DNA of 63,138 bases, the filler included, from Rhabdomonas costata (lineage: Eukaryota): assembly GCA_019059605.1 (NCBI GenBank). It is 31 parts of 31 records of this genome, joined end to end, with 100 filler letters (N's around TTAATTAATTAA, not from the genome) between each part and the next. Parts side by side here need not be neighbours in the genome. Positions count along the whole stretch, not along the records: positions 4,082 to 6,026 come from JAHMHO010007150.1; 30 more parts are not named here. One strand, given 5' to 3'. The notes beneath the pieces are model-generated. The model made no database searches and was not told where the DNA came from. It worked only from the letters and a program-made list of their open reading frames with translations. The translations under genes were made by a program, and so were the position numbers. Positions 1 through 63,138 of the stretch are shown here, piece after piece; within the stretch, counting starts at the first letter, position 1; each line of letters starts with the position of its first letter.

Positions 1-60
1 GTTGTTGTGTATACGTCTGAAATGAATTACAGGGCGTCCAAGAAGACCACAGGCAGACAC

Positions 61-1932
61 CTTCTTCATCCGCTCGGGGTGTTCCAGGTCTCTTTGGTCC
101 AGAAAGTCATGCCCAGACAGCACACCCCCAGGCTTCAGCTTGGGCCAGTAGAGCCTGAGGTCTTCTTGGACGCCCTGTAATTCATTTCAGACGTATTCAC
201 AACAACACGAGTCGTGAAGCAGCCAGCCAGCCAAGAAACGAGAAAACAGTGGAGGTCTCGCAAGCCAGCTGGAATTATTAGCTGTTAGCTGTTGCGAATT
301 TGCTTCGGTTTCCTTCAGCACTATGGGCAACAAATCCACTCGAAAGAATGGCCGGAATGCAGCCGCCATCGAACGAGAGACGAGAGGTACGAGCAAAGAT
401 GACCTTAGCACCCATCCCCCGGATTGAGTGGGGATGCCCGGATGGTGGCGTGATCCACTTTCATTGAAAGTGGAGACAAGATTGCCCAGAGGCGACTAAC
501 AGGGTCGTAATGTCACCCTCGCCAGTCGCATGGCACACAGACAGTTCAACCAGTCAGGAAGCCTTTTCCCGGTGCGCACCTTGTAGTCATGCCGAGCATC
601 GATGTAAATGAAATCTACTGACTCGTCGGCAAACTGCAGCACGGCAACATTAGAAAAGGCCCGGTGGAAGTGCACCTGAAACCCCACCCAACTCGCCTCA
701 CCCAGAAACAAAAATATGATCACCACCACCCGAGGGGGCCACCAGAGACAAAAATACCGATGGGGTGCGCTTCCATGGGTTCATTGTTTTCGATGCTTTT
801 TGATTTTCTAGTGTTTGCAACCACCCGGCCCACACCTTGGAAGCGAAGGGTGCCAGCCTCTTCTTGGTCGTGTCAAACAGAGAGTCGAACTGCTTCTGAG
901 GACGGTTTGCGATGTCCTTGTAGTTTTCCTGGAACAGCGCACATCCCACAACAATTCCTCTCTTTTGCCGAAACTCAATAAGTACAACAGACGCTCATTC
1001 AACGAACCATTTTCTTGGCCAAAAAATAGTTCCGGGACGCGTTCCGAACTCCGAACAACGTCAAAATCAGAGGTCCCATTTGAGCATAGCCCGTTTGACC
1101 TTTTTCCCGTCATTATCGTCCAGGGGTTTAGACAGGATGGGTGATGACCAAGGCAAATTTCTCAAGGAGGGACGGTTGTTTTTATTGCCCTGATGATGTC
1201 AGGAATTTATTAAAATTAAATAGAGAGTGTGTGAGAGCACACACGCACTGACATCATTTGAGAGAGAAAGGAATATTTAGTCGAGAGCGTGCAAAAATAA
1301 TACAAATTAAGCCAAGACGTGACGATAAAAGCGCCCAGGCTGAAAGATTCCACCGAGCAAACCCAAAAGCTTTGCCGTCGCCTTGTAATTGCCTCTTGCC
1401 TCGCCACCTAACACCCTCCAATAACTCTGTTGGCATCCGGGGCTTGCGCAACGTGGAAAAAGTCGCTTGCACGTGTTTAACATTGCCTAACCCAACCCAT
1501 CTAAACACCTGGTGCTTCCAGGCATCCACACAGTGGTACGCCTTAGCTTTGCTCCACCTCTCCTGTGTAAAGCGAAAAAAACCCAAACCATTGTCTCGTG
1601 CAACTCTTCCATTCCGACAAGCAAGAGAGAAACGCAGCTTCGACTTGAGCGCAAAGCAGGACAGCAGACTGACGCCAGGAATGCAAAGTTATCCGATTCC
1701 AAATTCCCCGCAAAAATGCGTTGGGATGGCTCCATGTTGAGGTGCTAAGTGCAACTTGCGTAACTTCAGAGCAAAAAAAGTTCAGAGACACTGACTGCCA
1801 CTTTAAGACTTCTTTGAAGTGACGTACGAGAATAAAAAAAGAGCATGACGTCACTGCAGCAGAGCCTCGCACCAAGACAGACAATGCGAAGACCCCGGCG
1901 CACACCCCGATTTCCACCCCCACCCCAAACAC
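61..1932 (-). CDS. Class I SAM-dependent methyltransferase (Methyltransf_24-like), partial, 5 exons: ~1932-1873, 1562-1509, 928-836, 675-580, 174-61
   Basis: Phase-0 GT-AG splicing gives GVEIGVCAGVFA (motif I) / ERWSKAKAYHCVDAWKHQ / ENYKDIANRPQKQFDSLFDTTKKRLAPFASK / VHFHRAFSNVAVLQFADESVDFIYIDARHDYK / GVQEDLRLYWPKLKPGGVLSGHDF, with the family-typical DFIYIDARH and LKPGG..SGHD motifs. Confidence 0.9.
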
Positions 1933-2755
1933 ACCCCACANNNNNNNNNNNNNNNNNNNNNNNNNNNNNNNNNNNNNNNNNNNNTTAATTAATTAANNNN
2001 NNNNNNNNNNNNNNNNNNNNNNNNNNNNNNNNNNNNNNNNGTTGGTGTTGGCTCGCGATCCTCATCATCCGCCCATGGGGTCTCGCTGCCACACGGAACT
2101 TTCCCCTGCCTTTCCCCGGTTGGGGGGGGGGGGGGTTGGGTTTCGGATAAAGTTCCAAAGAATTCCTTGGGGCCCCCGCAACCCCCAACACGACTTTCAC
2201 ATGAAAACGCGAGGTGAAGGGGATGACCTGGCTAAATTACCCTGGTCGATCCCTTCATGGCTCTACTCACGGCAGTTTTGGATTTGGGGTACAGCGGTCT
2301 TAAAGAAGGAATCAGAAAGCGAGAACACGAAAGATGGATGAAAGAAAAGACGTCTCTGGCATAATCTGCATAATCCTGTTGTGCGCCGCAGGGCACCCGT
2401 TCACCACACAGCACGACAGGAATCTCCGCCTGCCCTGGGGGTCCCACCACACACAACGCGTACATGTCAAAACAAAAAATCCCACCCGAAAAACACCCCC
2501 TGGCAAGTTGCCAAAAAGCACACCTGCAGCCCACCAAAAAAGACGAAGCGGACACCAGCGGCGTGCCCACATCCTTACTTCAACTCAAAGAACCAACGCG
2601 AGGAGGAAGCCTTGCTCTCGGCATGGCACTCAACTCCTGCTGCTCTCATACGGAGAAAAGGGAAAAGGCGCACGCTCGCCCCGCACACAGTTTCCCGCCC
2701 TTCCTGTGCGCGAAGGCGCCGTGGGGAGGACACCGGGCCCTCCACTCACTCACAG

Positions 2756-3461
2756 CTTCCCTAGAGGTGGTGCAGGATCACGCCTCTCTGACACAAGCGT
2801 TGCTCGAAGAAGTGGATGTGAGGGGAGGACCCCGAGTCACCCATTCCGGCGGTGATTTACAGTGAGGGGAAACACAGTCCGAATCTGTGACGATTTGTAC
2901 CTTATCCGAACCGCTGCTCAACACACAGCCCCCAAAGGTGGGAGGGGTGGTGGTGATATGGTCCCTTTGTGGCGGTCAGACAAACAGATCCGGCGGATGC
3001 AGCGCCTACGGCCCTACTACAGGCCGTACCAGTCATTCGAGGACCGCGTCGCGGAGGCGACCTTCCTGAAGATCCCGGAGCAGCGTGTGCTGCTGCTGAT
3101 GCAGGGTGTGCGTGTGCTGTGATCCAACGGTTGCGAGTGAGCGGGTGGGACTGCTTATCCTGGGCCGATCTTGCTTGTCAGAAGCGGACGAGAAAGAGCT
3201 CTCGACTGACTTTAGGCTCCCGCTGTGCACGACCCAATGTGATGACTCAGACATGCTAAAAAAAAGCAGCTCAAAAGAGAAGGGGAAGGGATTCTTTGTT
3301 TCGAGCCCCGAACAACCCCTTCTCATCTGTGGGTTGAGCCACGTGGGACCCTTAAATAGCACGCGGACAACGCGTGTGCATGGTATTGGGGTGGGTTTGT
3401 GTTTTCAGAGAGTGACAAGCGCAAGGAGATCGAGGCAGAGATGACCGCGGGGTGGGAAACG
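2756..3461 (+). CDS. Hypothetical protein, internal exons 2756-2851, 2980-3105, (3182-~3238?), 3409-3461
   Basis: AG/GT-bounded, phase-compatible GC3-rich exons (SLEVVQDHASLTQALLEEVD.., DKQIRRMQRLRPYYRPYQSFEDRVAEATFLKIPEQRVLLLMQ, ESDKRKEIEAEMTAGWET). No recognisable domain. Confidence 0.55.
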
Positions 3462-4091
3462 GTGTGCCATACCCCCTCCCCTCCTCTTTCTTCTTGTAAT
3501 CTCTCCCGTGCTTCCCCAACGAAGACCCTGTGAAACCTTGGGAAGTGATGGAAAATCAGCACCCCAGAGAGTGGTTCCCACACCTCCGCGCATTTGCCTT
3601 GTCTTGAAATTCTTCGCTTGTGCAGTCAAGACCTTCCCGCCCCCTCCTACCGATCGATCGCCAAGTTAATCCTGAGGTTAACACTTCACATACAGGTTGG
3701 AACGAAGGGTAAATCTTGCAGTTGAACCCCGCACAAGGGGTACAATGGCCAAAACTGGGGTACAACGACATTGGCACATAGGCGCCCTCTGTCATACTCA
3801 TGTTCAGCCACCGCCGGTTCCCCCATTACGGGTGCCGCTTGCTAGGTCCCAGCCTGGGGACATACGATGGTTTTGAGCTTTCCCTCTCCCAGCTTTTCTT
3901 TTCGCACCGGGATCACCTTCCGTGTTTTTAAATACGCACTTCAGATGTTCAGTTCATTATCAATTTGAAACCCACCCACAANNNNNNNNNNNNNNNNNNN
4001 NNNNNNNNNNNNNNNNNNNNNNNNNTTAATTAATTAANNNNNNNNNNNNNNNNNNNNNNNNNNNNNNNNNNNNNNNNNNNNGGAGATATGG

Positions 4092-5027
4092 ATGAGCTGG
4101 ACCCCCAAGGAGAAGGGCCTGGTGTACGTGGTGAGCAAGCGGACCTTCAAGGCGGAGCAGAAGCAGTGGAGAGGCCAGCATGAGCGCAGCTCCCGCTCTC
4201 AACCAAGCGAAGCGGTGCAGCTAAGCCAGCCTCCCAGTTCCCCATCGCAGGCTGATGCTCCGCAAGCTTCGCAGTGGGAGAGGGATCTCTCCGTGGACGG
4301 GGACGTGCACAAGAACCCGGGACCTCCCAAGCCGAGTGGAGGCCGTGCATCCCCGCTTTCCGCACGAGGAGGACGAGGAGGAAGAGGAGGAGGACGTGGT
4401 CGAGGGACACTGCCGGCAAGTCAGTACTCCAGCCGGCCCCAGCAGAGGCCCAAGCCCAGAGCCCGACAAGCTCAGGCCCCCCGAGCCTCGCCGGAGAATC
4501 GGGTCCCCTCAGTCACTCCTCAAACTACACCGAGATGCAGTGCGGGCTTCAGCTGCCTGCACTGCGGGCACACTACTAATAGCTCCGGCTCCTATTATGA
4601 CGGCGCGAGCCTGAACCCGTGGAGCCACCCCATGCATGTCCCTGTATGTTGTTTGCATGGGTGCTTGTGGCATGGACGGCAGTTTCCCTGCCAGCCTCCT
4701 CCCTCCTACCTCGAAGCCCTTAGATCAGGCTTCCCTCCTCTCCAACCACCCCAGCAAGCACACCGAGCAGAGCAGGCGCAGCAGCAGCAGCAGCAACCAC
4801 AGCGGCGGGCTGCCCCTCGGCAGCCCGCCACCAGCCATTCTCGGGGCCCCCAAGCTCCGGAGCTCGACGACGCGAAGAGCAAGAACAACGAAACCATCAG
4901 CCAGCACCCATCCACGACGCCATCCACAACCATGGGGTGGGTCATGGTGCTCGTGCTCGTGCCGGTGCTGGTCGTCGTGCTCCTCCGGGGCGTCAAGCCC
5001 CATGTGTTCGCGCCTGTTCTGACATAG
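4092..5027 (+). CDS. Intronless 311-aa ORF (open from contig start) with a 2A/StopGo-like motif, RGG box, Cys/His cluster and polyQ; probable leader ORF of a non-LTR retroelement
   Basis: Longest ORF in the window. WERDLSVDGDVHKNPGP at 4275-4325, then RGGRGGRGGGRGRG and CSAGFSCLHCGH..HVPVCCLHGCLWH. Confidence 0.6.
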   Translation: MSWTPKEKGLVYVVSKRTFKAEQKQWRGQHERSSRSQPSEAVQLSQPPSSPSQADAPQASQWERDLSVDGDVHKNPGPPKPSGGRASPLSARGGRGGRGGGRGRGTLPASQYSSRPQQRPKPRARQAQAPRASPENRVPSVTPQTTPRCSAGFSCLHCGHTTNSSGSYYDGASLNPWSHPMHVPVCCLHGCLWHGRQFPCQPPPSYLEALRSGFPPLQPPQQAHRAEQAQQQQQQPQRRAAPRQPATSHSRGPQAPELDDAKSKNNETISQHPSTTPSTTMGWVMVLVLVPVLVVVLLRGVKPHVFAPVLT

Positions 5028-5184
5028 GTGTGGATCTGCTCTACTCGCCCTCCCCCGTGCTGCACGACAGGGTTGTGGCGGTGAGGGGTGGGTCCATGAG
5101 CATCACCATCACCACCATGAACGGCATCCGGAAGAAACACAACGAAAACGCAAAGAAGCCATCAAAATTACTAAAGAGGACACA

Positions 5185-5228
5185 TGCGTCGCCTTCTAAC
5201 CCCATGCATCGCCTTCTAACCCCATGCA
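5185..5228 (+). repeat. 20-bp tandem duplication (TGCRTCGCCTTCTAACCCCA x2)
   Basis: Read directly from the sequence. Confidence 0.9.
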
Positions 5229-7174
5229 AAGTTTCTATTTGAATCCTGGGTACATATGTTCCCACCTAGGCGGAAATGAATTTGAAATGCAATTTATTTT
5301 CATGCAAAGAAGCTCAATTTTGGGTGGTATGGCTCTTTACAAAGTGTGACTTTTACATCATTTTTTTTTGCATTTCTGGAACTTTAACAGATTCCGCGGC
5401 TGTCTTTATACCCATCCCGTCATTGTGCATTCCCTTGTGGTGAAATGGATGTGGGTGGCCTGGATTCGGACGAAGGAAAGCGGAGGAGTGAAGAGGAAGT
5501 GGACAGGGATGGGTTAGGAGAGGTGTGATAGGGGATTGCCTTTCTGGCCTTGTCAGGATCTGCAAGCCCCTGATCGAAGATGTGAACAGGTGCCCAGTGG
5601 AGAGCTCTGGAGGTGGCGAAGGAACTGGCGGCAAGGCTCCTCTTGACGATGAACTTTGAGCGGGCCCCCGACCATCTGGACCATCTGGCATAGGCTTGGT
5701 CGTTCCCGCCCTAATGACGCCGAAATGGGGCGGAAGGCATGTAGTGGCAGCGCAGCGGACACCTCGTTGGCATTCTTCCAAGGGGGTACCGCAGAAGTGC
5801 CTTTGAGGAGGGGGGGGCGTGCATTGATGGTTCACTTCTGCACTGCTCCACAATGTGATAGAGTGTGCTGCCTCTATTGGTGTGTTTGATCAATAATTTT
5901 GAGTTCATTACGCAGGCGGCCGCGTGCTCCTGTCCAGCGCGGAAAGACCCAACCCAATCCGAACCGGAATGGGTTGGGCCTAGTTTTCTGGGTTTATTTG
6001 AGAAACAAGTATCTGTACCAACCACCNNNNNNNNNNNNNNNNNNNNNNNNNNNNNNNNNNNNNNNNNNNNTTAATTAATTAANNNNNNNNNNNNNNNNNN
6101 NNNNNNNNNNNNNNNNNNNNNNNNNNGTCACCTCCCGCTTTGGAGAGGTGCACTGAGTTTCGTGCTGGTTGTTGTTGTGTGACAGATAGATCTTCCTTCT
6201 GCTCTGGAAGTTGCAAACGGTAGCGTTATCTGGGGTTTATGCTTCTGTTGGTGCCTACGCAAGCTTTCCGTTGCAGCTCGTTCTGCAACCTACGGAGGGA
6301 CAGAGGGTGGATGGATGATAGCGGAGTGAAAATAGTTTCCGCTGAAGACGTTTTGAACGTTGAACGTTGGCGTTTTAAGTGAAGGGTTGCGATGTTGTTG
6401 TTTTTCTAATCAAAAACGGTCGTTGGGCATTTTACGGCAACGCCAGCTTCAGTCGAAACGATAGAAATGGGCCGACCGTGCAGGTTTGGGGAGAAATGGA
6501 GGCGAACCTGTCCTCGCACTTTTCAGTCCCCCTGAGTTTTTTCCTGGGAGTGTACATTTCAGTGCATCCTGGTGCATTTTTTCGTGTCACAAAAAGGTCT
6601 TCATTGAATCAGTTCGGCGTGAGCGTGGTGAACTTTGCTTTGGAATCATGATAATTCTCATACTCTGGACGCGTTCTGGTTGGCTTTCCGCTTGATTCCT
6701 CGCTTTCTCAGCAACCTGCCAGCAGCAAATACTTCTTTCGTGTTTTTTTTCGGTTACGTATCCCTTGAACGAATCCTCATCATGTCACGGCCGGTTGGAC
6801 TGATATTCGTTATAACGCTGAATTTTGCTGCCCAGCATTATTCTCCCGCACGGCGCTCGGGCTGTCATCGTTTTTGAAGATCTCTCGCGCTCTCTATCTC
6901 TCTCTTAGCTTAGCTGTGCTGCAACTTTGCTTCGTCGAAGTGCGACAGCCTTGGGTACACCCTTGTGCCGTACCGCTCCTCTTGCGCAAGCACCCCATGC
7001 TCTGCAACAGACTGCTGTGCTGGTAGGCGTGCTGAACCCCCCCCCGCCGATTTCACTCCCCGGGCGCGTGATTTGCGAAATAAAGAATTAGATTTTTGTA
7101 AAAGTAAAGAAGCAAAAGAAGAGAGAGTTGGGCTCAGGGCGTTTCCGGATCACCAGTTCCCTCCTTACCTGTCC

Positions 7175-11825: not shown

Positions 11826-12619
11826 CGTTTTGTTTCCTGTGTTGAATTCAGATTGCTTCCCCTGAGAATGGCAGGACTCTGTAGAAAGTAGAGTTGTTGC
11901 TGGATTGTCTCGGTTCACGCACTTTTCTACTTGACTGAAGAGTCAATTTCTGCGTTCTTTCTGCTTGCTGTGGAACTAAGCCTAGAGCTTTTTTTAGAGC
12001 TGACGGCGTCTGGTTTTCATTTTTCGGCTTTCATGCCTTATTTGTTTGCGGTATGCTCCTGAACTCTGTCACTTGCTTGCGATGTTTTCCTACCGGTTTG
12101 CCAAATGCTGTGCTGCAGCCTGTTCCCCCCCCCCCCTTTTTTTTTNNNNNNNNNNNNNNNNNNNNNNNNNNNNNNNNNNNNNNNNNNNNTTAATTAATTA
12201 ANNNNNNNNNNNNNNNNNNNNNNNNNNNNNNNNNNNNNNNNNNNNGGTGGTTTTCCTTATCCGCTCTCGTTTCTGTTTGTCTTCCCTGGTGCTTCTCTCC
12301 TTTGTTCCTCATATTTTGGTTCCCTTTGCCAGGCCTCAATCTTTCTTTTCTTTGAGATCGCTCTGCTCACTGTTCCTGTTTCCTGTCATTTTGTTCCACA
12401 ATATAACTGCCGGGGATTGTCCGTGATTGTCGCCAACCTTCGTCTGTAGTTCACATCAGTCCTCTCACTCCAGTTCGCGCTCTCCCCTTTCTCTCTCCCG
12501 CGTCTTGCTGACATTCCCCTTCTCTCGTGCTGCACCGTGCGGCTCCTGTCCCGCCGCAAACTTTGGCAAGAGAGCGCAGAGAGTTCACCGACCTGTTTAC
12601 CCATTGCTGTTCCCCATAG

Positions 12620-14185
12620 CGTTTATGTCCCCGGAGCTGATCACAGAGGGGCGGTTCGGCCACAAGTCCGACGTGTGGGCCTGCGGGTGCACCGTGCTGT
12701 GCATGCTGGCAGGCAACCAGGCCTTCTACAGCCACCTCAGCAGCCCAGCCGCTCTCCTGTACAACATTGGTGGCCACCACACACACACACACACACTCAC
12801 TCACTCACATACACGCAAGCAATTGTATGAGTACACCCAGGGAATTTATGCAAACACAAGCGACAAGCACATCCGCAGAAAAAAAAGACATGGACGGAGA
12901 AATAGCAGCCCTCATCAGCCGCGCCCAATGTGCACATCACGGAAATGTCATCCGTGCCTCGAATTGGTGATCAAGATCCGACGAGATGAGTGCACACACC
13001 ACAATCGTTTTGAAGTGTACCCACTGATACACCACTTGGTGGCTTTGTTACTTTTAACTCCTCTCCTTCTTATAGAAAAGTAGTGGTCTCGAAATATTAG
13101 CCGTGACAATTTTACAATTCTGGCATTCGAGGAATAACATTTGGAATGTTACGAGACCGTTACGACCCTCACCGACCCCGCCCCCCTGGCCACTGGTCCA
13201 GTGCGTTTGTATTTCCACTCACCGCCATCCCTTCGGTTTCCCTTGCAGGGCAAGGCTTTGCCAGGCCCCAGATCCCAACGTGGTGCTCGCAGTCCACGGT
13301 GGACTTTTTGAACCAGTGCTTCACAGCGGACTGGAAGGACCGCCCTGACGCCACCGGTCTCCCCCCACCTCTGCGATTTCCTTAAGCACCAAAGTCTAGG
13401 GACGTGTTCTTCAGTGGTGTTTTCGGACGTGTTCTTAGGTGCTGTTGGTTTACCGCACTTCTGTGTTCATGTCCTTTCGCCAGTCTCTCTGTGGGCCGAA
13501 CCAACCTCGGTGACCGAGTGCCGTTACCGATGGTGCTTGTTTCTATTGGTCGCGCATGCTCCGAAGGTCCTCTGCACCTCTTTGTGCAAGACCCCCAAAT
13601 CTTTGGTGCATTCTGCTGTTTCGCTTCTTTCGGAAATGGTGGGTACGAAGGTTCGGTTTGACCTTGCTTCGCCAAGGAGTGGCACTTGGCTTTTTGCCAA
13701 GGCTGCTGCGGCGTGCTATGGTTGGGGTAAGTGTGTGGGCTCCCCGTTCACGGGTTTCTCTCCGCCCTTGCGGCGGTGCAGGCTGCCGTGCTGGGGTGCT
13801 TGAAGGACGGTGTTAGAACTTTAAAGGACCGTGTGCAAAGCAGAAAACCGAACTACCTTTTTTTAAGGTGACATTCCTGCGTTTCACTCAGCAGGTTTGG
13901 TACCCTGACGAAGCTTTGCTGTTTTTCTGCTCTTTCTTGGTTGGTGAAAATCCGTCTAAGAAGGGGAAACCTGTCTTTCAATTCACTGAAAGCACAAGCG
14001 AAGTTTCAGAAAGGGGGCAAAGAAGCGAAGGGTCCATCAAATCTCCTGCCAACAGACCTCCTGGATCACCAGTTCATCGTCGAGCCCATCACGGCGCCTG
14101 GCACCCCCCCGATGGGCGACGGCGACGGAGGGGGGCTGGGCTTTGGCCCGCCCCCCTTGCCCGCGCTCTCCCTGCACACCCCAAC
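12620..14185 (+). CDS. Ser/Thr protein kinase (STE/MAP3K-like), subdomains VIII-XI; exons 12620-12769, 13249-13356, 14056->14185
   Basis: FMSPELITEGRFGHKSDVWACGCTVLCMLAG..AALLYNIG / QGFARPQIPTWCSQSTVDFLNQCFTADWKDRPDAT / DLLDHQFI; all phase-1 GT-AG introns. Confidence 0.9.
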
Positions 14186-21317: not shown

Positions 21318-21944
21318 CCACAGGCCGCCCGAGATGTAAAGACCAAGATGTACCGACAGCGCTGGTCCTCGCGCAGCTTTATCCCCACCTCCTGAGTAGG
21401 ATCGGCCGCGCAGAACACCGCCACGGTGACTTGTCGGTTAGCTTGGCTCTGTCAACACACACACACACACACACACACAACACACAGAGAGAGAGACAAC
21501 ACTGTGAGCTTGGGTACGGATGTCGGTGGGCCGCTGAAAACCTGGAAGGGTCTCCTTTCATGAGTGCTGGTTTCTTCAGCAGCCACCGGCCTTGCCGGCG
21601 TCTGAAAGTTGTTCAACTGGGTTTTTTTTTACCATTTTGGCGTCTCAGCGTTGTATGTGCCTCGAACCCGTGGGGCACGCGGTGATTCTTCTCCTGTTGT
21701 TGGGTGAACCAGTACACAGCAGCTCATACCGAGAGCATTGGCATCTCCGCGAAGACACCCAAGGGCAACCGGCTTGGTACGCTGGACGTCCAAAAAAAAA
21801 GGGCAAAAAAACAATGTGATATGGAGCGTCCCATATAAAGCGTCCCGCGCCAACCTCTTCGCAGAACGTCCCGTCGGCCATCCAGGTCCGGTAATGAGCC
21901 TCCGTGGTCCGGGTCGCCGGCACCAGCTCCCACTTCCCAGTGGC
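21318..21944 (-). CDS. MRH (mannose-6-phosphate receptor homology; OS-9/PRKCSH-like) domain protein; exons 21944-21855 and 21448-~21318
   Basis: Phase-0 GT-AG join gives HYRTWMADGTFCEE|SQANRQVTVAVFCAADPTQEVGIKLREDQRCRYILVFTSRAAC, the G..C..R...V...C..E...C.Y.....S..AC pattern of MRH domains. Confidence 0.75.

Positions 21945-36745: not shown

Positions 36746-36774
<29 letters not shown>
36746..36774 (+). repeat. (GT)n dinucleotide microsatellite; similar (CA)n tracts at ~12779-12795, 21455-21485, 37761-37786, 52900-52945
   Basis: Read directly from the sequence. Confidence 0.95.
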
Positions 36775-36775
<1 letters not shown>

Positions 36776-37755: not shown

Positions 37756-37787
<32 letters not shown>

Positions 37788-46405: not shown

Positions 46406-47171
46406 CTGCCAAACGGTTTGCATGAGGTTCTGGCAAAAACGTAGGGATCTACTTGGCTCGAATCCGAGGCAGAAATGCATCTGGGTACCAAAATACACTT
46501 TATCAGCATCGGTTCCAACCGAGGAGATCCAAAATCATACCCAGCAGGAACTTCGCAACTAGAGCTGCCTGCAACTCAGTAAAATGGAGAGCGAGAAGTC
46601 CATTCAACCAACCTACACCCTATTCTACCGTAACTCTACTATGCTTGATTCAACGTATGGCCAGATTGAGGTTCGGATCAACAAAAACCTCTCGGCTCCG
46701 GCCTGGCTTTCACTTTGCACACAGATTAAGGCAAATTTCCGGCATTTTCCAGTATTCCTTTCAAATGTTCCAGTCAGAATGACTCTCCCGCAGGCCACTC
46801 ACCCGAACGGAAAGCCGACCCACAACACANNNNNNNNNNNNNNNNNNNNNNNNNNNNNNNNNNNNNNNNNNNNTTAATTAATTAANNNNNNNNNNNNNNN
46901 NNNNNNNNNNNNNNNNNNNNNNNNNNNNNAGGCCAGGAAAGTCAGGACAACGGCCCAATGGCAGGGGTGGGGAGTGGTAACCGTCGTACCATTGGTTAAC
47001 TGTAGCCAGGGGAAACAGAAAACTGAATCAAGATTTGATTTCTTTTTTGCACATTTAACTGAAAAACGGTCCGGTAAAACTTGCCAGCACTCTTGAAATG
47101 TCTTTATTGTGTGTAAGTGGGTTAGTTAACATTTGTCAGTGCTCCCTATGACTGTTTTCACAGCGGATAAC

Positions 47172-47231
47172 TACTGCTGGCTAAGGACTCGCCAATGGTT
47201 AGATTGGGCCGGATGAGTTGGACAGCATTAG
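47172..47231 (+). repeat. Dispersed ~60-bp repeat, copy 1 (copy 2 at 55145-55205)
   Basis: tactgctgg..aaggactcgccaatgg..ggccgga.gagttggacagca.tag shared by two unrelated contigs, about 80% identity by eye. Confidence 0.8.
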
Positions 47232-50200
47232 GGGCGAAGGCAGACCGCGTCGTGGCCGGAGCGGGCCGCCAGGACGGGGACTTGACCTCGGGACTTGTTA
47301 AAATATGCTGTCATGGAAAACGTTGTTATCACCCTTAACCCTCCCAGCCTCCATTGCATCACGACTCACCGCTGCACATATAGCTGTCAGCTCAACGTGA
47401 CCCCGTGAAAGAGAAACAGAGACGCCGAAAACGAAAAGAGTGTGAGAGGAGGAGGGCCTGCTCCGCCCCCCCCCCTCCCCCATATCATCTCAGCCCTGCT
47501 CAGGGGCAATGCTTGTTTCGGTTTGTGTCCCTGTTTTGATGCTGCCCGGTTCCCCGGCGTGCCCAGCAACTGACCTTCCCCACCTTCCTGGTCCCCACCG
47601 CCTGCCGGTATGTCCTGCTGCACGCTCTCAGTTCATTGCTCAGGCTCTCTTTTGTTGTGCTGGGTCTCCTTCTGTTGGAGTAAGCGCAAGTGGCGAAGAT
47701 GCATTGCAGTCCAGAAAGGCTAGTCCGTCCGAATTCCTGTGTGCTTGTGCTTTAAGACATCGCACGGCCTTATGATGAACAGTCAATTCATTTTTCTCGT
47801 TGACTTATATTCACGAAATACGCGAAATGACAACTCTTGAATGGCTTTTTTGCGGTTGGATGTGAGTGCGCACCCGCTCACGCCCAGGCACTGGTACCAG
47901 GGCGTCCGAAAGCCTTAAAGCAGCTTTTCAGGGCCCTCGACGCGCTGCGTTGCGGTGCGGACTCGGAGGGTCTTGCTTGGTGTGCGGCTCCCTCTGTGTG
48001 CCCCTCCCTCTCCGCTTGTCCACATATGCCAACATTTCGAGCATCACGGCACTGCAGCACATGCGCATGAGTTTAGCAACGGCTAAGGCTCGGCAGAAGC
48101 CTGACAATTAACACGAAGCAACGTAAGATCTGGGTGGAATACGGCAAACAGACAAACAAAGCAGAAAACGGGAAACATCTGCGGTCGGAAAAATGTTGTT
48201 TAAGTGGGAAAGTGAAGAGGGCATATCGTTCTGCGGTACGCAGAATGAAGAAGAAAAGGAGGGTGGCACGAGAAGTAATTTACACACGGAAGTAACGCAG
48301 GATGGAAAACATATAAATATGTGGAAAGAAAAGTGGGACATGGGAAGGTGGAGAAGAAAGCGTCCTGTGCTCCGCACGATGAGGCGTGTGGTCTGACCAC
48401 CGTAGGGGTAAGTGATCATGATGTCCATGAATATTCCAAGGCAATCTTTAGGTGAAAAGTTCTTATCCCCAGTCTGTGAACTGCAGCGCAGTTTGGGTGG
48501 ATTTCGCTACGCCATCCTCCCGGGCATCTGCGCATTTTGCTACCCGATGTATGCAGAGAATCTCCCGCGATCGCCAATCCCCGGAGTCTTTTCTCTAGGA
48601 TCTTCTCACTCACCCACTTTCTGCTTCCGTGCCAATGTTGCTGCCACAATCGTTCACTCTTTTTATCTATCCTGTGTGCAAGCAAACCATGCGGACCTCC
48701 GCTGCTGCAGTGAGAGTTTTCTTTGTTCTCTCTGATTCTCGCGTTTTTTTTTTGCAGTGGAAAGGCCGCTCCCCAGCCTGTGCTCCCCACCCCACCCTCC
48801 GCTCCAAAGTTTTCTTCTCCTCGCGGCCCTCTGGTGGCCCGTGCATCCAGACCCACACCCCCCAAACANNNNNNNNNNNNNNNNNNNNNNNNNNNNNNNN
48901 NNNNNNNNNNNNTTAATTAATTAANNNNNNNNNNNNNNNNNNNNNNNNNNNNNNNNNNNNNNNNNNNNTTTTGGGGGTGCGATGGGGTGCGATCCACCTC
49001 GATAATGATAATTCAGAGGAGGAAAACTGTGGCGACCAAGTTTTTTAGGTTAGCTGGGTTAGTTATAGGAGAAGTTCAGTTTGGGGGTCTCATTTAGGGA
49101 GGATTGGGAGGGGGGAAGGTCGCAAAATCTGTCGACCGCTAAACAGCGCTTAAAGTCTGACAGTGTTAGTCGGTTAGGCAAAGTTTTTCAATGAACCCGA
49201 TCTCCGGGAGTTTCGGGAATTATGGTGCCCATCTGTGGAGCCCAGTGCAAGCGGCTGCCGAAACAAGGGGCCCCAATAATCTGTCCTACCCACAAATGCC
49301 CGGGTCACTGGTGCCCAACAGTGGTTCTCACACGGGGCCACGTTTGAACCATAAGGGGAAAACGTACATCGGCTTCTGATGGCATAAACTCAAGTGAAAC
49401 CACCGGTATAGGCAGAGATCAGATATCTCCCCAGAAAAAGTCTTGGCGGGGTTTCCCGTCCACTTCGGTGTGGGAAAGGCAGAAAACTCTCAAGGCAACC
49501 TTTCGCCCGGCACGGACGGCAAAAAGGGCTGATATGAACTCCCTTCTGAAGGACTGAGCTGGGCTGGGGGGGGGGTTCTGGAACAAAAAGCAACCGGTGT
49601 ACGAAAATAAAAGCTGTGGTAACAATGGGGGGCAGAGAGAGAAGGCGTTGTTCTGAACCACAGCCAGAGAACCGCCTCTGTGACCAATAGTCGTCTCACA
49701 AACACGAGAATGACAGTGTAGCGCCTGTCCGCAAGCAGCCATATTTACAACCGATGCGGGTCGAGGGAGGGCAAGGGTAGCATAGACTTAAATGCAGAGC
49801 CGGAATAATGGATTCCTCACTCATTCAAATCTCGGCTTTGGTGTCGCCGGATCCCCGGACAACATAGAAGTAGAAGTAGGCGTTGTTGGGAAAAATCTCC
49901 CCTACACTGATTAGTTTCACAGGTGCCCACCGATGGCATAAAATGCCAGCAAACGCACTGCACCTCCAACGCAAAGGGATTGTAAAGCTTGGCGGTGGCA
50001 AGGTCCACGTCATGCGCGTAGCGAAACCGTAGGGGCATGTAGGTGGGGCGTTCACCACAACACCTGATATGGCCCTGAGAGCAACGGATGAGACCGGGAG
50101 GGGGCCAGACGCGCAGATAGGTGCGGGGGCAAGCGAACAGTGGCGTCAGATCCGATACCGGTGCAAAATCAGCCACAGTGAATGTCCAGCGGAAAAGTTC

Positions 50201-52900: not shown

Positions 52901-52931
<31 letters not shown>

Positions 52932-53313
52932 CACACACACAACACAANNNNNNNNNNNNNNNNNNNNNNNNNNNNNNNNNNNNNNNNNNNNTTAATTAAT
53001 TAANNNNNNNNNNNNNNNNNNNNNNNNNNNNNNNNNNNNNNNNNNNNCCATTTGTGTAGGGAAGCACGTGATGTGATGTTTCCCAGGTAACCAACCAGAT
53101 CGGGCGCAATGCAGCATATACCAACCTCACGTGTGAGGGGCCGTTCGAGTTCCAACCCGGAATATTCGCTTGCCCGAAATGCGCTGGAAGTTTCCACTTG
53201 TGCTGATTGCATCCACTGCATTAAAATTCTCTAAGCTAAATTGTTGGTAAAAGCGTTGAAAACGTTCTGTGTGGAAAAGGTTCAGGACCCAATGGGAGGT
53301 CAATGATTCGTAG

Positions 53314-53411: not shown

Positions 53412-55144
53412 GTGGAGCGCCGAGAAGATGCGAGTGTTCGAATGAACTTGTCAGAGATTACTCGGTTTTTCAAAGGTTTCATGTTGTATATGATAGGAAC
53501 CCAACGATGGTCATCGAGAAGCCTTCCGAATCAACAATGCTCTGGCAAGGGTCGGCATTCTTCCAGACGATGTAACCGGACTCGTCAGTAAAGGAGCTTC
53601 TGTGGGAAAGGCATATCCTGGGTTGTCCAAGTCCTTGTTCAAAAAATGAGCAACTGCCGTATATCGTCGTCGGACATGACCGAGGCCATTCCCGAGGAAG
53701 TGAAGGAAATGCTGAAATGCGGACAAGCTTTCCTTCATGCCAGGCAGTACGTAGCCGTTAGTTTGCTTGCTCAGAAAGGTTCTCAGAATGAGAGGGCTGA
53801 GCAGTCCGCTTCCCCCAACCAACCTAACCCACCCACGTGCATCTTCAGGGACTGTGCCTCGTGGTGGCCCGCTCGTATCATCCTTTTGCATACTTCGTGA
53901 CAGCGGAGCTTGATCGGATGCTGAAAACTATGGTAATCTAAAAAAGGATGCATAAGATACTGCAGCGGTAGACACACGCACTTGGGATTTCCTTGTCATT
54001 TTTGTTCTTCACACGAATTAAGGTTGAATGCGATGAAACGTTACTGGGTAGATATTGCTGCTTGTTTTGCAGTGCGGAAAGAAATCGTAGAGGTCGACAA
54101 GTTCGTCTCCAACACGAATTAAGTTGAGAACTTACTGCTATGTCTTGTTTTCTGTTTCCAGACAGCCTTGCGAGAGAAATGTCGTAGGAACCACTCAAAA
54201 GCATTTCTCACGGTAGAAGGGGCTGAGTAGGATCAAGCTTTGATTTAAAGCGACCTTCAACACGGCCACTCATTACGACATTTAGGTCAACCAGCTGAGA
54301 TACGAAAAACTCAGGACTGCTCGCAACGGCTCAGCGCTCATCTGCTCGTCCTCTTTTGCGCGCTGCAACAAACCACAGTGGTAACACCTATAAAAAAAGC
54401 TAGGGCAAAGCCAGAGCTGCGTCGCGCAGGTGAGTGATAACATTGACAACTGTGAGAACAAAACGTCACTACGACAGTTGCAGCAAGCAACCGCGCCATT
54501 CTACTGCTTTCGGAAGATCACAGTCAAACAGCACTGGTGGGATGTTACACATAGTAGGGATGGAGAAGTGGTGGCATTCGACTTCACCAGTTCCTGGGCA
54601 CTTCAAGCCGGCCGACAGCAGGCTGCCTCTAACTCCGGGGCATCACATCGCCAGCAGACGTAATAACATCCAGTGCGCCTCCGCAGCCTACCTAATGGTC
54701 TTGTCGTCCCTCTCTCCGTACTTGGCGGTGTATATATAGGAGGCCTTGGGCCTCTCCAGTGCACGATGAGTTGTGTTGAGAGTGCTCTCCGATTCCCGCA
54801 CTTTTCGAAGCCAACTGGCTGGAGCAAAACCTTCCTTGTGTTCCCCCAGACGTCCGGACTTTTTGCTTTTTTTCTGTGTGCAAAACTCAAAACTCAATTC
54901 TTTTTTCTTCCTTTTTCCGCAATTGTAAAAATCCCTGCATAGCACCCACATGCCTTCGTAGGTCACCCCACCCACCGCGACCAGAGNNNNNNNNNNNNNN
55001 NNNNNNNNNNNNNNNNNNNNNNNNNNNNNNTTAATTAATTAANNNNNNNNNNNNNNNNNNNNNNNNNNNNNNNNNNNNNNNNNNNNTGTGTTGGGCAAAA
55101 ACACTCATTACAGTAATGAGTGTTTTTGCTCAACAGCCCAAAAG

Positions 55145-55205
55145 TACTGCTGGACAAGGACTCGCCAATGGCTGGGATATGGCCGGACGAGTTGGACAGC
55201 AGTAG
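55145..55205 (+). repeat. Dispersed ~60-bp repeat, copy 2
   Basis: See 47172-47231. Confidence 0.8.
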
Positions 55206-55237
55206 TCTCTCATTCATGGACCCGTTCTCGCTCACAG

Positions 55238-55338
55238 CGCTCATCCGACAGCCGACCCGGGCCTTAATGTGGAAACGGAGCTCATTCGCCTCCAACCCGG
55301 ACGCAAGGTGGTGTTCCACGACACCGACTGGGGCTTCT
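55238..55338 (+). CDS. Isolated exon, unknown protein
   Basis: cacag|AHPTADPGLNVETELIRLQPGRKVVFHDTDWGF|gtattg. Confidence 0.4.
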
Positions 55339-57473
55339 GTATTGTCTTGTTTAAATCGGATGGGGACGTGAAGGAAATGTACTGCAATCGCCCACTCGGG
55401 TCCTCACCTGGGCGGACCCCGATGTGAGGAATCGAAGTATGTAAGTTTTATCTCAATCTCTTGCACTCGCTGGGCTGTGGGTAGGAGGAGGACCTTGATG
55501 ACCCCTTGGGTGGTGTCTGCCGGTCCCTGGGCCCGCTCAGCACCTTGTGGGGAAGGTTTTTGGTTGGAATCGCGTCCGCTGGTAAGGCATCATGCCCTCC
55601 CCAAAAAATTATTTTGAGCAGTGGGCCCCTAAATAGTATCAGGAATCGAGTATTTTGTTGACTGCCCTTGGTCTTCTATAATCAACATCTCCCGCACCAC
55701 CTTCTTCAGAAACCCGCAAAATCAAATTAGGGTCCATCAACTAAAAAGTCGTTGACGAGGCTCGGAGAGACCGAGAAAGAAATAGAGGCTTTTGGTTTCT
55801 CAGCCCATGACGGTATACCAATAGTATAAAGGTCAGCAAAAGGGACTATCGACCTCGGGTGTTGGGGTCGTGTAAGTTTAACGTTTTATGCATCCGTTAA
55901 ACGCCTGTCGTCTGCACCATTTTAATCGTTTGGAGACTTCGGATCGATTCGGACCATGAGGCGGAGAAGTGTCGCAGCGGGGGAAGGAGGGAGGGGCAAG
56001 CAGAAACTCGACTTTCGACGTTTAAGTTTTTCAAACCTTTTCAAACAGTTCAATACATAAATTTTCATGTTTTGGTGAAAAAACGCAATCAACTGCACTG
56101 AAGCATGAGAAAGAAATGTACACGTTATTGAACATCCCCCGCTCCTTAATGTTTCCGATTGTGGGGCCTAGCTTTTGAAGGCGACGTTTTTGTGCAAGTC
56201 CTTTTCCCCTCAGAGTGAGCCGCCGACTCTCCTCTAAGGTGGACAAGGGTGCGCAGTGCATAAATTGCGTGGTTTATATCTCTGCTTGGGATGGATTCTG
56301 TCCTCCACGTTTCCTCGTACCCTCCTCGCGCACAACCTTCCTTTCTTTTTCCCCACTGCCTCCGCTCCTGTGAGGATTTCTTTCCTCCGCACGTTCCCCC
56401 CGCTCCCTCCAGTTTCTTCGCCTGCTTCCTTATGGCACGCTCCTCTCACCTGCCTCTTACCTGATCCTGTGGTGGTGCCTTAAGCCTTCAGTGGTGCTGA
56501 ATGTTCTGCGCGAAATTTACTCTACTGTGGTATTTTTCGAGGCCGATCACCTCTGTTGGTTTTAGTTGGATGGAGGGGATGGGTGTGTGTGGTGGGTTGG
56601 TAGATGGGTGGGTGGGTTTCTCGACGCGCGCGCGCGCACACACACACACACACGCACACATGCGTGTTTCTCTCTTTCTGCCAGTGGCAAGGAATGGGGA
56701 GGGGTGTCCCGAGCAGCAATGACACGAATAGGCAGAAGGCCGATGCACTGAAGACACTACATGCGTGATGCGTGCAGACCGCTACACCCAGCCAAGACAT
56801 GATAAACATAGAGACAACCGTAGGAAGACACGAGAGAGTGAACTCAAAAGACCAATACCATAAACCACGTTTATACTTTCCGATATCATGATTTAGATTC
56901 ACGCCTTTTTGAGAGTAGTGCTGAGTGAAAGCAACATGAAGCCAGAAAAACAGTAAGAAACCTGCTCCTCTGGAGACACTCCGACTTGCCACCACCTCAA
57001 AGGTGCTACCGCTACACCCAAAACCNNNNNNNNNNNNNNNNNNNNNNNNNNNNNNNNNNNNNNNNNNNNTTAATTAATTAANNNNNNNNNNNNNNNNNNN
57101 NNNNNNNNNNNNNNNNNNNNNNNNNGGGTTTTGGGTACTCCACAGTGCTATTGGGAAGGGCTCGGAGTTGGGCTGTCGAAGTGACACCGCTGACGAAGCC
57201 CACGGTGTCTTCGGGAAAGCTGGGTGGGAACCTCCAAAAGTTTCCCAGCTCCCGCACGTCAGTAACGGAGACCGTGTCCTGAGCAAAAACGGAAGGATGC
57301 TCTCAAATATAGCTTGAAGGCATCGCTGAAAACAATCACATTTCATGCTCATCTAAATTTAACGGAAGTGTTCATGCTCATGACATATTCGCCTTTTCAC
57401 GCCAACAGCGCACAAACGGAGACTGCGGTTGCTGCTTTGGAAGTCTCGAAAAAAGAGAGGGCCTGAAGGCTAC

Positions 57474-63074: not shown

Positions 63075-63138
<64 letters not shown>
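63015..63138 (+). mobile_element. LINE/SINE-like 3' end: stem-loop (63015-63063) followed by a (TTA)~20 tail (63077-63138)
   Basis: gagaaccgacct/gggtcagttctc and ctgccct/ggggcag pair around an 8-nt loop, 13 nt upstream of a pure trinucleotide tail. Confidence 0.5.

Follow-up and report, generated by a model that had tools for sequence, protein, structure and literature searches.

The window analysed here is a stretch of 63,138 nucleotides from the genome assembly of Rhabdomonas costata (GCA_019059605.1), made up of 31 contigs of 1937–1951 bases each (∼1.94 kb) that are chained by artificial N44-TTAATTAATTAA-N44 linkers carrying stops in three frames. One of these, an unplaced contig at 4082–6026 (JAHMHO010007150.1; no strand assigned), encodes a peptide of the ribosome-skipping (StopGo, or 2A) class followed by part of a basic protein, here called X, and relatives in public sequence collections place this peptide behind the reverse transcriptase (RT) of a retroelement with the layout of Penelope-like elements. 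The linkers that flank the contig lie at 3982–4081 and 6027–6126, so the sequence beside it is not its genomic context and no feature can be read across a linker. The rest of the window is unrelated DNA: with all 69 retrieved proteins as tblastn queries, this contig was the sole match among the 31, and the search within the window gave no further copy and no RT or endonuclease piece on the other 30 contigs.

The motif lies in the longest open reading frame (ORF) of the window, a stop-to-stop frame of 314 codons at 4083–5027 (+) with its stop codon at 5025–5027, which is open at the contig 5′ edge (from 4083). The StopGo element, WERDLSVDGDVHKNPGP at 4275–4325 (+), is encoded by TGG GAG AGG GAT CTC TCC GTG GAC GGG GAC GTG CAC AAG AAC CCG GGA CCT. 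In the numbering of Li et al. (PNAS 2026, PMC12846837), where the core is D12 V/I13 E14 x15 N16 P17 G18 P19, it reads W3 E4 R5 D6 L7 S8 V9 D10 G11 D12 V13 H14 K15 N16 P17 G18 P19. The core octapeptide, DVHKNPGP at 4302–4325, is canonical at seven of eight positions, and the His at position 14 (p14; codon 4308–4310) falls outside the strict consensus. The bond predicted to be skipped is that between Gly and Pro, encoded by GGA (4320–4322) and CCT (4323–4325). Upstream of the core, the residues follow in register the viral context called motif 4, WV(R/K)DLTx[acidic]G, which has Gly at p11 and is associated with Asp at p12 (PMC12846837). W3, R5, D6, L7, D10 and G11 are all present, with Ser for Thr at p8 and Glu for Val at p4; given the Ser at p8 and the His at p14, the peptide fits this StopGo class at 14 of the 14 specified positions.

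NPGP is found once in all six frames of the window. From the residue composition of the window itself in six frames, D[VI][EH]xNPGP should turn up 2e-4 times per window, and the core combined with the upstream W.[RKH]DL[TS].[DE]G only 9e-13 times per window, or 2e-7 over 250,000 windows. Thus, a chance match is excluded. In a HMMER search of 1.8e9 representatives, picorna-like (P0010, P0012) and toti-like (P0018, P0019) polyproteins matched over the 2A stretch by itself; all of them carry W.RDLT.DGD(V/I)E.NPGP; P0010 and P0012 have several 2A sites. Judged by its sequence, the 17-residue peptide is a conserved signal of the StopGo (2A) class. The initial annotation had described this motif in the longest ORF, ahead of an RGG box and a Cys/His cluster, and had read it as a 2A peptide with His replacing the consensus Glu. 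All of this is borne out by the DNA and by the fit to motif 4, and the regular-expression check that it proposed gives the single NPGP in the window and further copies in public collections. The non-consensus His to which it drew attention is no longer new in itself: His at p14 is published among the uncommon variants of the octapeptide that RNA viruses carry in excess, and a natural example gave >95% separation in vitro, in reticulocyte lysate (PMC12846837).

The window's copy begins inside a module that precedes the 2A site in the relatives described below. The C-terminal part of this module (IW.SWT..EK.LVYVVS...FK.EQK.WR; 4083–4178, +) is truncated by the contig 5′ end and is matched by the module hidden Markov model (HMM) at ORF residues 1–32 (E 4e-14). 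Because the contig starts inside the module, any RT part of this copy would have to lie beyond the contig. Protein X in the main frame (4323–5027, +) would start with Pro and contains the RGG box (4365–4406, +), a conserved island RPKPRARQAQAPRASPENR (4446–4502, +), a Cys/His cluster of the form C-x5-C-x-H-C-G-H (4536–4571, +), PPSYLEALRSG and a poly-Q stretch. Past ∼4922 this frame loses its resemblance to relatives, and comparison with the homologues P0001, P0006 and P0011 places a frame break within 4814–4922 (+). P0006 aligns in two frames (tblastn, 4632–4922 and 4847–5167; local alignment, 4632–4922 and 4814–5167), and the SHSRG and IGVD motifs stand in a single frame in P0001, P0003, P0006 and P0011. 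The homologous C-terminus of X (..APPGRQAPC..SDIGVD..) is found in another frame at 4724–5242 (+), with its stop codon at 5240–5242. The break could be a genuine mutation, or it could stem from the assembly, for instance from an error in a homopolymer. Truncated in the module and frame-broken in X, the window copy is probably dead or mis-assembled, and its value lies in the family to which it leads rather than in this locus.

The sequence after the stop codon (5243–6026, +), presumably a 3′ untranslated region or flanking DNA, has no coding similarity to the 69 proteins, whose tblastn matches end by contig position 1086. Rfam gave no match on the whole window at the gathering threshold and none on the contig at E ≤ 1, hence no match to a hammerhead ribozyme. 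For the window ORF, Pfam returned two sub-threshold, irrelevant matches only, and the ESM Atlas returned no usable match. Two repeat features were seen in this part of the contig. A 20-nt unit, CATGC[G/A]TCGCCTTCTAACCC, is tandemly duplicated at 5183–5222, at the end of the X frame and directly before the stop codon. A near-perfect hairpin with 17-nt arms (88% complementary) and a 3-nt loop lies at 5945–5981, ∼700 nt past the stop codon and near the contig 3′ end; it may belong to the retroelement as a 3′ element or be mere flanking DNA.

Relatives were collected from public metagenomes and genomes. The first search, which was word-indexed, returned two 2A-less relatives only, and exhaustive HMMER searching of 1.8 billion representatives was needed to reveal the family, giving 19 proteins (P numbers). 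Scans of metagenome and genome contigs added the DNA loci L001, L002, L003 and L006. The HMM of the pre-2A module, which spans ∼50 residues with the consensus ..EYE.Y.....R..IWL.WT..E.R.VY..S...F..EQ..WK, matches 24 non-viral sequences. An intact D[VI][EH]x[NH]PGP stands in frame at the same place in 16 of them, which agrees with the retroelement-borne motif that the initial annotation had proposed. The other eight comprise the decayed P0004 and P0025, the divergent P0053 (GEAKNPGP), the short ORFs P0015 and P0021, which diverge past the module, and P0032, P0036 and P0041, which lack a 2A and stop 21–24 residues past the module.

P0005 has two sites, and the 16 sequences therefore hold 17 intact sites, nine with His at p14 (the window, L002, L006, both sites of P0005, P0013, P0017, P0020 and P0029) and eight with Glu (L001, L003, P0007, P0009, P0016, P0042, P0068 and P0069). 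There are near-copies among the 17, with P0009, P0068, P0069 and L001 forming one group and P0013 and P0020 another. Trp is present at p3 in 15 of the 17. In the alignment of the family (A2), S63, W65, D68, D72, G73, D74, N78, P79, G80 and P81 are invariant, at an overall identity to the window of 26–45%. Among the four DNA copies, which are ∼30–35% identical at the protein level, synonymous codons differ at six of the ten invariant motif residues, indicating that the constraint is on the peptide and not on the RNA. A tree of the 16 sequences without L006, with the motif columns retained, is poorly resolved, with good support for 3 of 13 inner branches. Those branches already require two or more changes between Glu and His at p14, and the best tree needs five.

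Some variation around the core was also recorded. The residue at p15 tracks that at p14, His14 being followed by Lys (3), Pro (5) or Ser (1) and Glu14 by Ala (4), Ser (2), His (1) or Leu (1). L001 pairs Glu14 with His at p16 (DVEAHPGP). The two sites of P0005 are 33 residues apart, at residues 95–102 (YQKDLSACGDVHKNPGP) and 128–135 (WTRDLTQDGDVHPNPGP), and resemble the tandem 2As of some picornaviruses.

The host element was characterized from longer relatives. On locus L002 (3.1 kb), the C-terminal part of an RT, with GMPMGMPAAPQIANL and RYIDD, lies upstream of the module–2A–X ORF, the two being separated by an in-frame TAA and a frame change. A search with this RT fragment retrieved 46 longer proteins. 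The consensus of 14 long relatives opens with a GIY-YIG-like block that has no Cys in its core (G.IY...HF..GR.YVGQT ... RER.WV..LN..WP.GFN) and continues with C.C (D.L..C.C..AL), KGKKFRL, GMPMG.P.APQIANL and RYIDD. The motifs CxC and GxKF/Y occur between the endonuclease and the RT, for example as NCQCR and VKGKKFRL in P0030 and L006, and the block corresponding to the DKG/DK motif reads FL.DDRAPHG...VCKRWY. Pfam RVT_1 matched 12 of 13 distinct long relatives (E 3e-5 to 2e-2) and GIY-YIG (PF01541) matched two of the seven relatives having the N-terminus (P0030, E 0.0065; P0052, E 0.063), in each case below the curated cut-off; in neighbour clusters of the Atlas, 16–38% of members have GIY-YIG. 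NCBIfam gave, for the RT family, only a 16-bit match to a group II RT. An AlphaFold2 model of P0047 has a mean predicted local distance difference test score (pLDDT) of 68, with values of 80–95 over most of residues 370–960. With this model as query, Foldseek ranks 1–16 are all telomerase RTs (E 1.3e-8 to 5e-6) and group II intron RTs come only after them, and the RT is thus predicted to have a telomerase-like fold.

An N-terminal GIY-YIG endonuclease, CxC and GxKF/Y motifs and a telomerase-related RT characterize the Naiad and Chlamys types of Penelope-like element, and Chlamys-type elements are reported to insert into (CA)n and to form partial tandems (Craig et al., MBE 2021, PMC8557442). 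Locus L006 (5.5 kb, 1–5462) is a near-complete unit in a partial tandem, 1–240 repeating 5247–5462 at 96–98% identity, an arrangement seen at this one locus only; the ORFs of P0031, P0035 and P0048 begin MCVCVCV, encoded by a (TG/CA)n repeat. We therefore file the element as Penelope-like with a putative N-terminal GIY-YIG endonuclease, of the Chlamys-type layout. The assignment is made by layout, motifs and the modelled RT fold, and the DKG block reads DDRAPHG, so that the element is a candidate rather than a proven member of the clade. Two divergent members of the RT family, P0060 (∼638–694) and P0065 (905–968), have a match to an OTU/otubain-type cysteine protease behind the RT and not module–2A–X (Pfam E 3e-4 and 2e-3, both sub-cut-off).

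The position of the 2A site relative to the RT is seen directly in several relatives. P0029 (1326 aa) and P0042 (663 aa) carry RT, thumb, linker, module, 2A (DVHKNPGP and DVELNPGP, respectively) and X in a single ORF, and the order RT–module–2A–X recurs on DNA in L002 and L006. The 2A site lies ∼400–500 residues behind the RT in the longer relatives. What the initial annotation took for a leader peptide is not short: in full-length relatives (P0029, P0042) it is the C-terminal end of an endonuclease–RT protein of ∼1000 residues. In a 2A-less sub-lineage the same junction has another form. P0032, P0036 and P0041 stop where a 2A would be expected. The X-only ORFs P0001, P0008 and P0011 start with Met at the aligned junction; in P0003 this Met is internal, behind a 94-residue upstream extension. 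A junction that takes the form of a StopGo site in some members and of a stop with a new ORF in others is the strongest indirect evidence that the site separates two proteins.

The StopGo site might be real and the gene order nevertheless be module–2A–X–endonuclease–RT. The unit would then start at the module, the 2A would remove a short leader or the product of an upstream partial copy (pseudo-LTR, for long terminal repeat), and the continuity from RT to 2A in some ORFs would stem from head-to-tail partial tandems, a mode of insertion typical of Penelope-like elements (PMC8557442). Such an arrangement is kept alive, with a 2A near the N-terminus, by L006, in which the X tail at the contig start passes stop-free into the endonuclease and the contig ends form the direct repeat of a cyclic unit. 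It sits poorly with the spacing in the RT family, where seven of the ten ORFs reaching at least 390 residues past the thumb contain the module, 356–493 residues away and so at much the same distance, and with P0032, P0036 and P0041, in which a single ORF holds both RT and module and stops at a homologous spot just past the latter. The boundaries of the unit also speak for the other order: P0047 and P0052 have a common start, MP(S/P)P..RP, ∼35 residues ahead of the conserved LP.AEPYDKH, which precedes the endonuclease, and P0031 has a microsatellite rather than X upstream of the endonuclease. At the other end, X in the window runs to a stop (5242) followed by non-coding-looking DNA, and the predicted ORFs of P0029, P0001, P0006 and P0011 likewise end after X, by a stop or a contig edge. 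We regard the module-first order as unlikely, and the sequences favour the order endonuclease–RT–linker–module–2A–X–stop. Two further observations concern L006. Its unit can be read round and round as one ORF without end, save for a gap of 100 N within a VPVE repeat, where the frame cannot be judged, and its 2A (AIRKKDLTIDGDVHPNPGP) is without Trp at p3.

Protein X is a basic protein of ∼300–390 residues with an RGG or Arg-rich stretch, a conserved RPKP.ARQAQAPRASPENR island and a CxHCG cluster; P.SY..A.R.G and SHSRGAF are further motifs. A basic RGG and Cys/His protein that would begin with Pro, as the initial annotation had it, does follow the 2A. An AlphaFold2 model of the relative P0011, built from 14 aligned sequences, has a mean pLDDT of 52.5 and a predicted template modelling score (pTM) of 0.17, and X is predicted to be mostly disordered. 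From its composition, X is most likely a disordered nucleic-acid-binding protein or chaperone (Gag-like) that would serve as a partner of the RT.

In the mechanism that we propose, one ORF would encode, in order, the endonuclease, a linker with CxC and GKKF, a telomerase-like RT with its thumb, a variable linker of ∼350–490 residues, the ∼50-residue module, the 2A, X and the stop. Once ...DVHKNPG has been made, the growing peptide, held in the exit tunnel by contacts of its W-x-R-D-L-S/T-x-D-G context, would prevent formation of the peptide bond to the next Pro. The enzyme part would be freed and translation would then resume, so that each ORF would yield two proteins, an endonuclease–RT ending in ...NPG and X beginning with Pro. 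The motif match, its conservation, its place relative to the RT and the predicted RT fold are observed; skipping in the host, the part played by X and the working of His14 in this context we infer.

A conserved motif at this position could instead act mainly to lower or tune output, through pausing, drop-off or 'reduction', with no clean separation of two proteins. The non-consensus His at p14 and Ser at p8 would fit such a role, and a preprint reports that the majority of the retrotransposon 2A-like peptides it tested cut protein abundance (70% of ORF1p and 59% of ORF2p cases; bioRxiv 10.64898/2026.06.17.732966). A sub-lineage that has, at this very junction, a stop and an X ORF of its own speaks for two separate proteins as what selection has favoured, and His at p14 was compatible with >95% separation in the viral context (PMC12846837). 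We consider a mainly modulatory role improbable relative to the separation of endonuclease–RT from X.

The initial annotation had placed the motif in an APE-type non-LTR element (L1Tc/ingi-like), where an N-terminal 2A would free a nucleic-acid-binding protein from a short leader. APE-type non-LTR elements do contain 2A-like sequences (bioRxiv 10.64898/2026.06.17.732966), and the downstream protein is basic with Cys/His residues, like some ORF1 proteins. The 13 distinct long relatives scanned gave no APE/exo-endo-phosphatase Pfam match, though, and instead show the motifs GIY-YIG, CxC and GKKF, with an RT whose predicted fold is telomerase-like; the site lies behind the RT thumb, linker and module, not before the endonuclease (P0029, P0042, L002, L006). 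An APE-type host is thus very improbable. The weakest reading, a chance match or a functionless relic of an integrated RNA-virus fragment, would account for the confinement of viral similarity to the 2A stretch and for the decay of many copies (P0004, P0025, P0015, P0021), yet it is scarcely credible given the chance expectation above, the 17 intact sites at the same position in sequences of 26–45% identity with synonymous codon turnover, and flanks that match retroelement ORFs and neither capsid nor RNA-dependent RNA polymerase.

Taken together, we put a probability of roughly 0.72 on StopGo function and an endonuclease–RT/X architecture in a Penelope-like family, a claim about the family that does not extend to the activity of the window copy. 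In the interpretation of the initial annotation, the 2A class, the retroelement and the RGG and Cys/His protein hold, and the APE-type host and the release from a short leader do not.

Several observations weigh against this conclusion. For the site itself, the one setting in which His14 was assayed is a viral context in rabbit reticulocyte lysate, the window has Ser at p8, whereas Thr is found in 14 of the 16 other intact sites, as well as Glu at p4, and the nearest relative of the window, P0004 (51% identity), has a decayed site, DVHKKPGP, and no Trp. The window copy, incomplete and frame-broken, is perhaps never translated. For the host element, every RT and GIY-YIG match in Pfam is below its curated threshold, the RT-family profile found nothing among PDB sequences, and the Penelope-like assignment comes from layout, motifs and the modelled fold. 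For the gene order, the module is lacking in three of the ten long RT ORFs, P0051, P0056 and the OTU-bearing P0060; P0051 and P0056 end about where the module would start, and P0060 belongs to a divergent lineage. The frame of X in L006 enters the next endonuclease without a stop, which fits the module-first order, and the stop/ATG junction of the 2A-less sub-lineage was deduced from protein ends only. Finally, the structural model of X has low confidence, so that its function is read from composition.

Several elements of the separation proposed here are already in print, namely 2A peptides in APE-type long interspersed nuclear elements (LINEs), a 2A after a Ty3-like RT, His at p14 and a Trp-bearing upstream class. 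New are the class of host element, the position behind its RT, the replacement of the site by an ORF boundary in some members and the fact that His and Glu are used about equally often. Known cellular StopGo sites are few, and most stand near the start of the ORFs of APE-type LINEs or of a few immune and signalling genes. To our knowledge, Penelope-like elements are regarded as having a single ORF, without a Gag-like partner. If our reading is correct, this recoding signal, found behind a telomerase-like RT, would gain a further class of retroelement as its host, and some Penelope-like elements would produce a second, basic protein. The sister lineage with a stop and ATG would then be a natural demonstration that a 2A is equivalent in function to an ORF boundary, and the roughly even split of His and Glu (9 and 8 of 17) would offer natural contexts in which to ask why His is rare in viruses and yet active. 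Our literature search found no paper that pairs Penelope-like elements with 2A-like sequences, or Penelope with NPGP; most subscription journals and supplements are beyond its coverage, and supplements such as that of Rao et al. (Cell Rep 2025, PMC12338488) may already list metagenomic members of the family.

More tentatively, and with somewhat less than even confidence, these points can be joined into one picture. The site would be the first translational recoding signal in Penelope-like elements and would mark a two-protein lineage, in which StopGo and stop-plus-new-ORF are interchangeable means of keeping a telomerase-like RT apart from its disordered partner, an RNA-binding protein. At p14, His and Glu would be equally fit and would have been swapped repeatedly, and the motif-4 context would point to an exchange of signals between RNA viruses and retroelements. 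If His and Glu are indeed equally fit and repeatedly swapped, the family is a natural mutational series for the least understood position of the core. The stop-free cycle of L006 suggests a bolder extension, that in tandem copies the 2A, and not a stop codon, may set the ends of the proteins.

Elsewhere in the window, an open frame at 12427–13083 (+), on the contig at 12246–14185, encodes FMSPELITEGRFGHKSDVWACGCTVLCMLAGNQAFY, which resembles a Ser/Thr protein kinase exon (subdomains VIII–IX) and is followed by a (CA)n-derived HTHTHT stretch. A 73-nt stretch with 82% identity between 47160–47231 and 55133–55205 (contigs 46930–48868 and 55087–57025) is the sole sequence common to two contigs of the window. 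(AC)n/(GT)n microsatellites lie at 21455–21486, 36747–36775, 37761–37787 and 52901–52946, and a (TTA)20 repeat at 63077–63138 is terminal. A dinoflagellate spliced-leader motif has no match in the window, a negative that speaks neither for nor against any particular host.

The family can be set beside several known systems. With the 2A sites of APE-type non-LTR elements (L1Tc/ingi, CR1, L2, Crack) it shares a StopGo site in a retrotransposon ORF that separates off a nucleic-acid-handling protein. The sites in those elements precede the APE endonuclease, near the start of the ORF, whereas the site described here comes after the RT, in an element with a putative GIY-YIG endonuclease and a telomerase-like RT.

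The likeness to viral motif 4 (PMC12846837) extends to the register of Trp at p3, R5, D6, L7, the acidic p10, G11, D12, V13, N16–P19 and even His14. The window site differs in belonging to a cellular retroelement, not an RNA virus, and in having Ser at p8 and Glu at p4; and His14, rare in viruses, is found in 9 of the 17 sites of this family, against 8 with Glu. The Trp-bearing class B 2A peptides, whose activity depends on the Trp both for its identity and for its register, also have an upstream Trp, and many of their members come from unnamed metagenomic proteins (PMC12338488). Class B differs in its EEGIE-type centre, Gly at p12 and, often, His at p16 (PMC12338488), where the window has G11–D12 and Asn at p16; in this family only L001 has His at p16.

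Among Penelope-like elements, the Naiad and Chlamys types (PMC8557442) agree with the family in the domain order read from its motifs, partial tandems and association with (CA)n, in a Cys-free consensus of the GIY-YIG-like core, which is Chlamys-like, in variable C-terminal extensions with Cys/His motifs and in having no hammerhead ribozyme match. The family departs from them in the DKG/DK motif, which reads DDRAPHG, and in module–2A–X, which is not among the accessory domains that the paper lists; 'NPGP', '2A-like' and 'skipping' do not occur in Craig et al. (2021). A parallel in placement is a 2A-like peptide at the RT C-terminus of a Ty3-like LTR retrotransposon (bioRxiv 10.64898/2026.06.17.732966), which, like the site described here, comes after the RT, but in a different class of retroelement.

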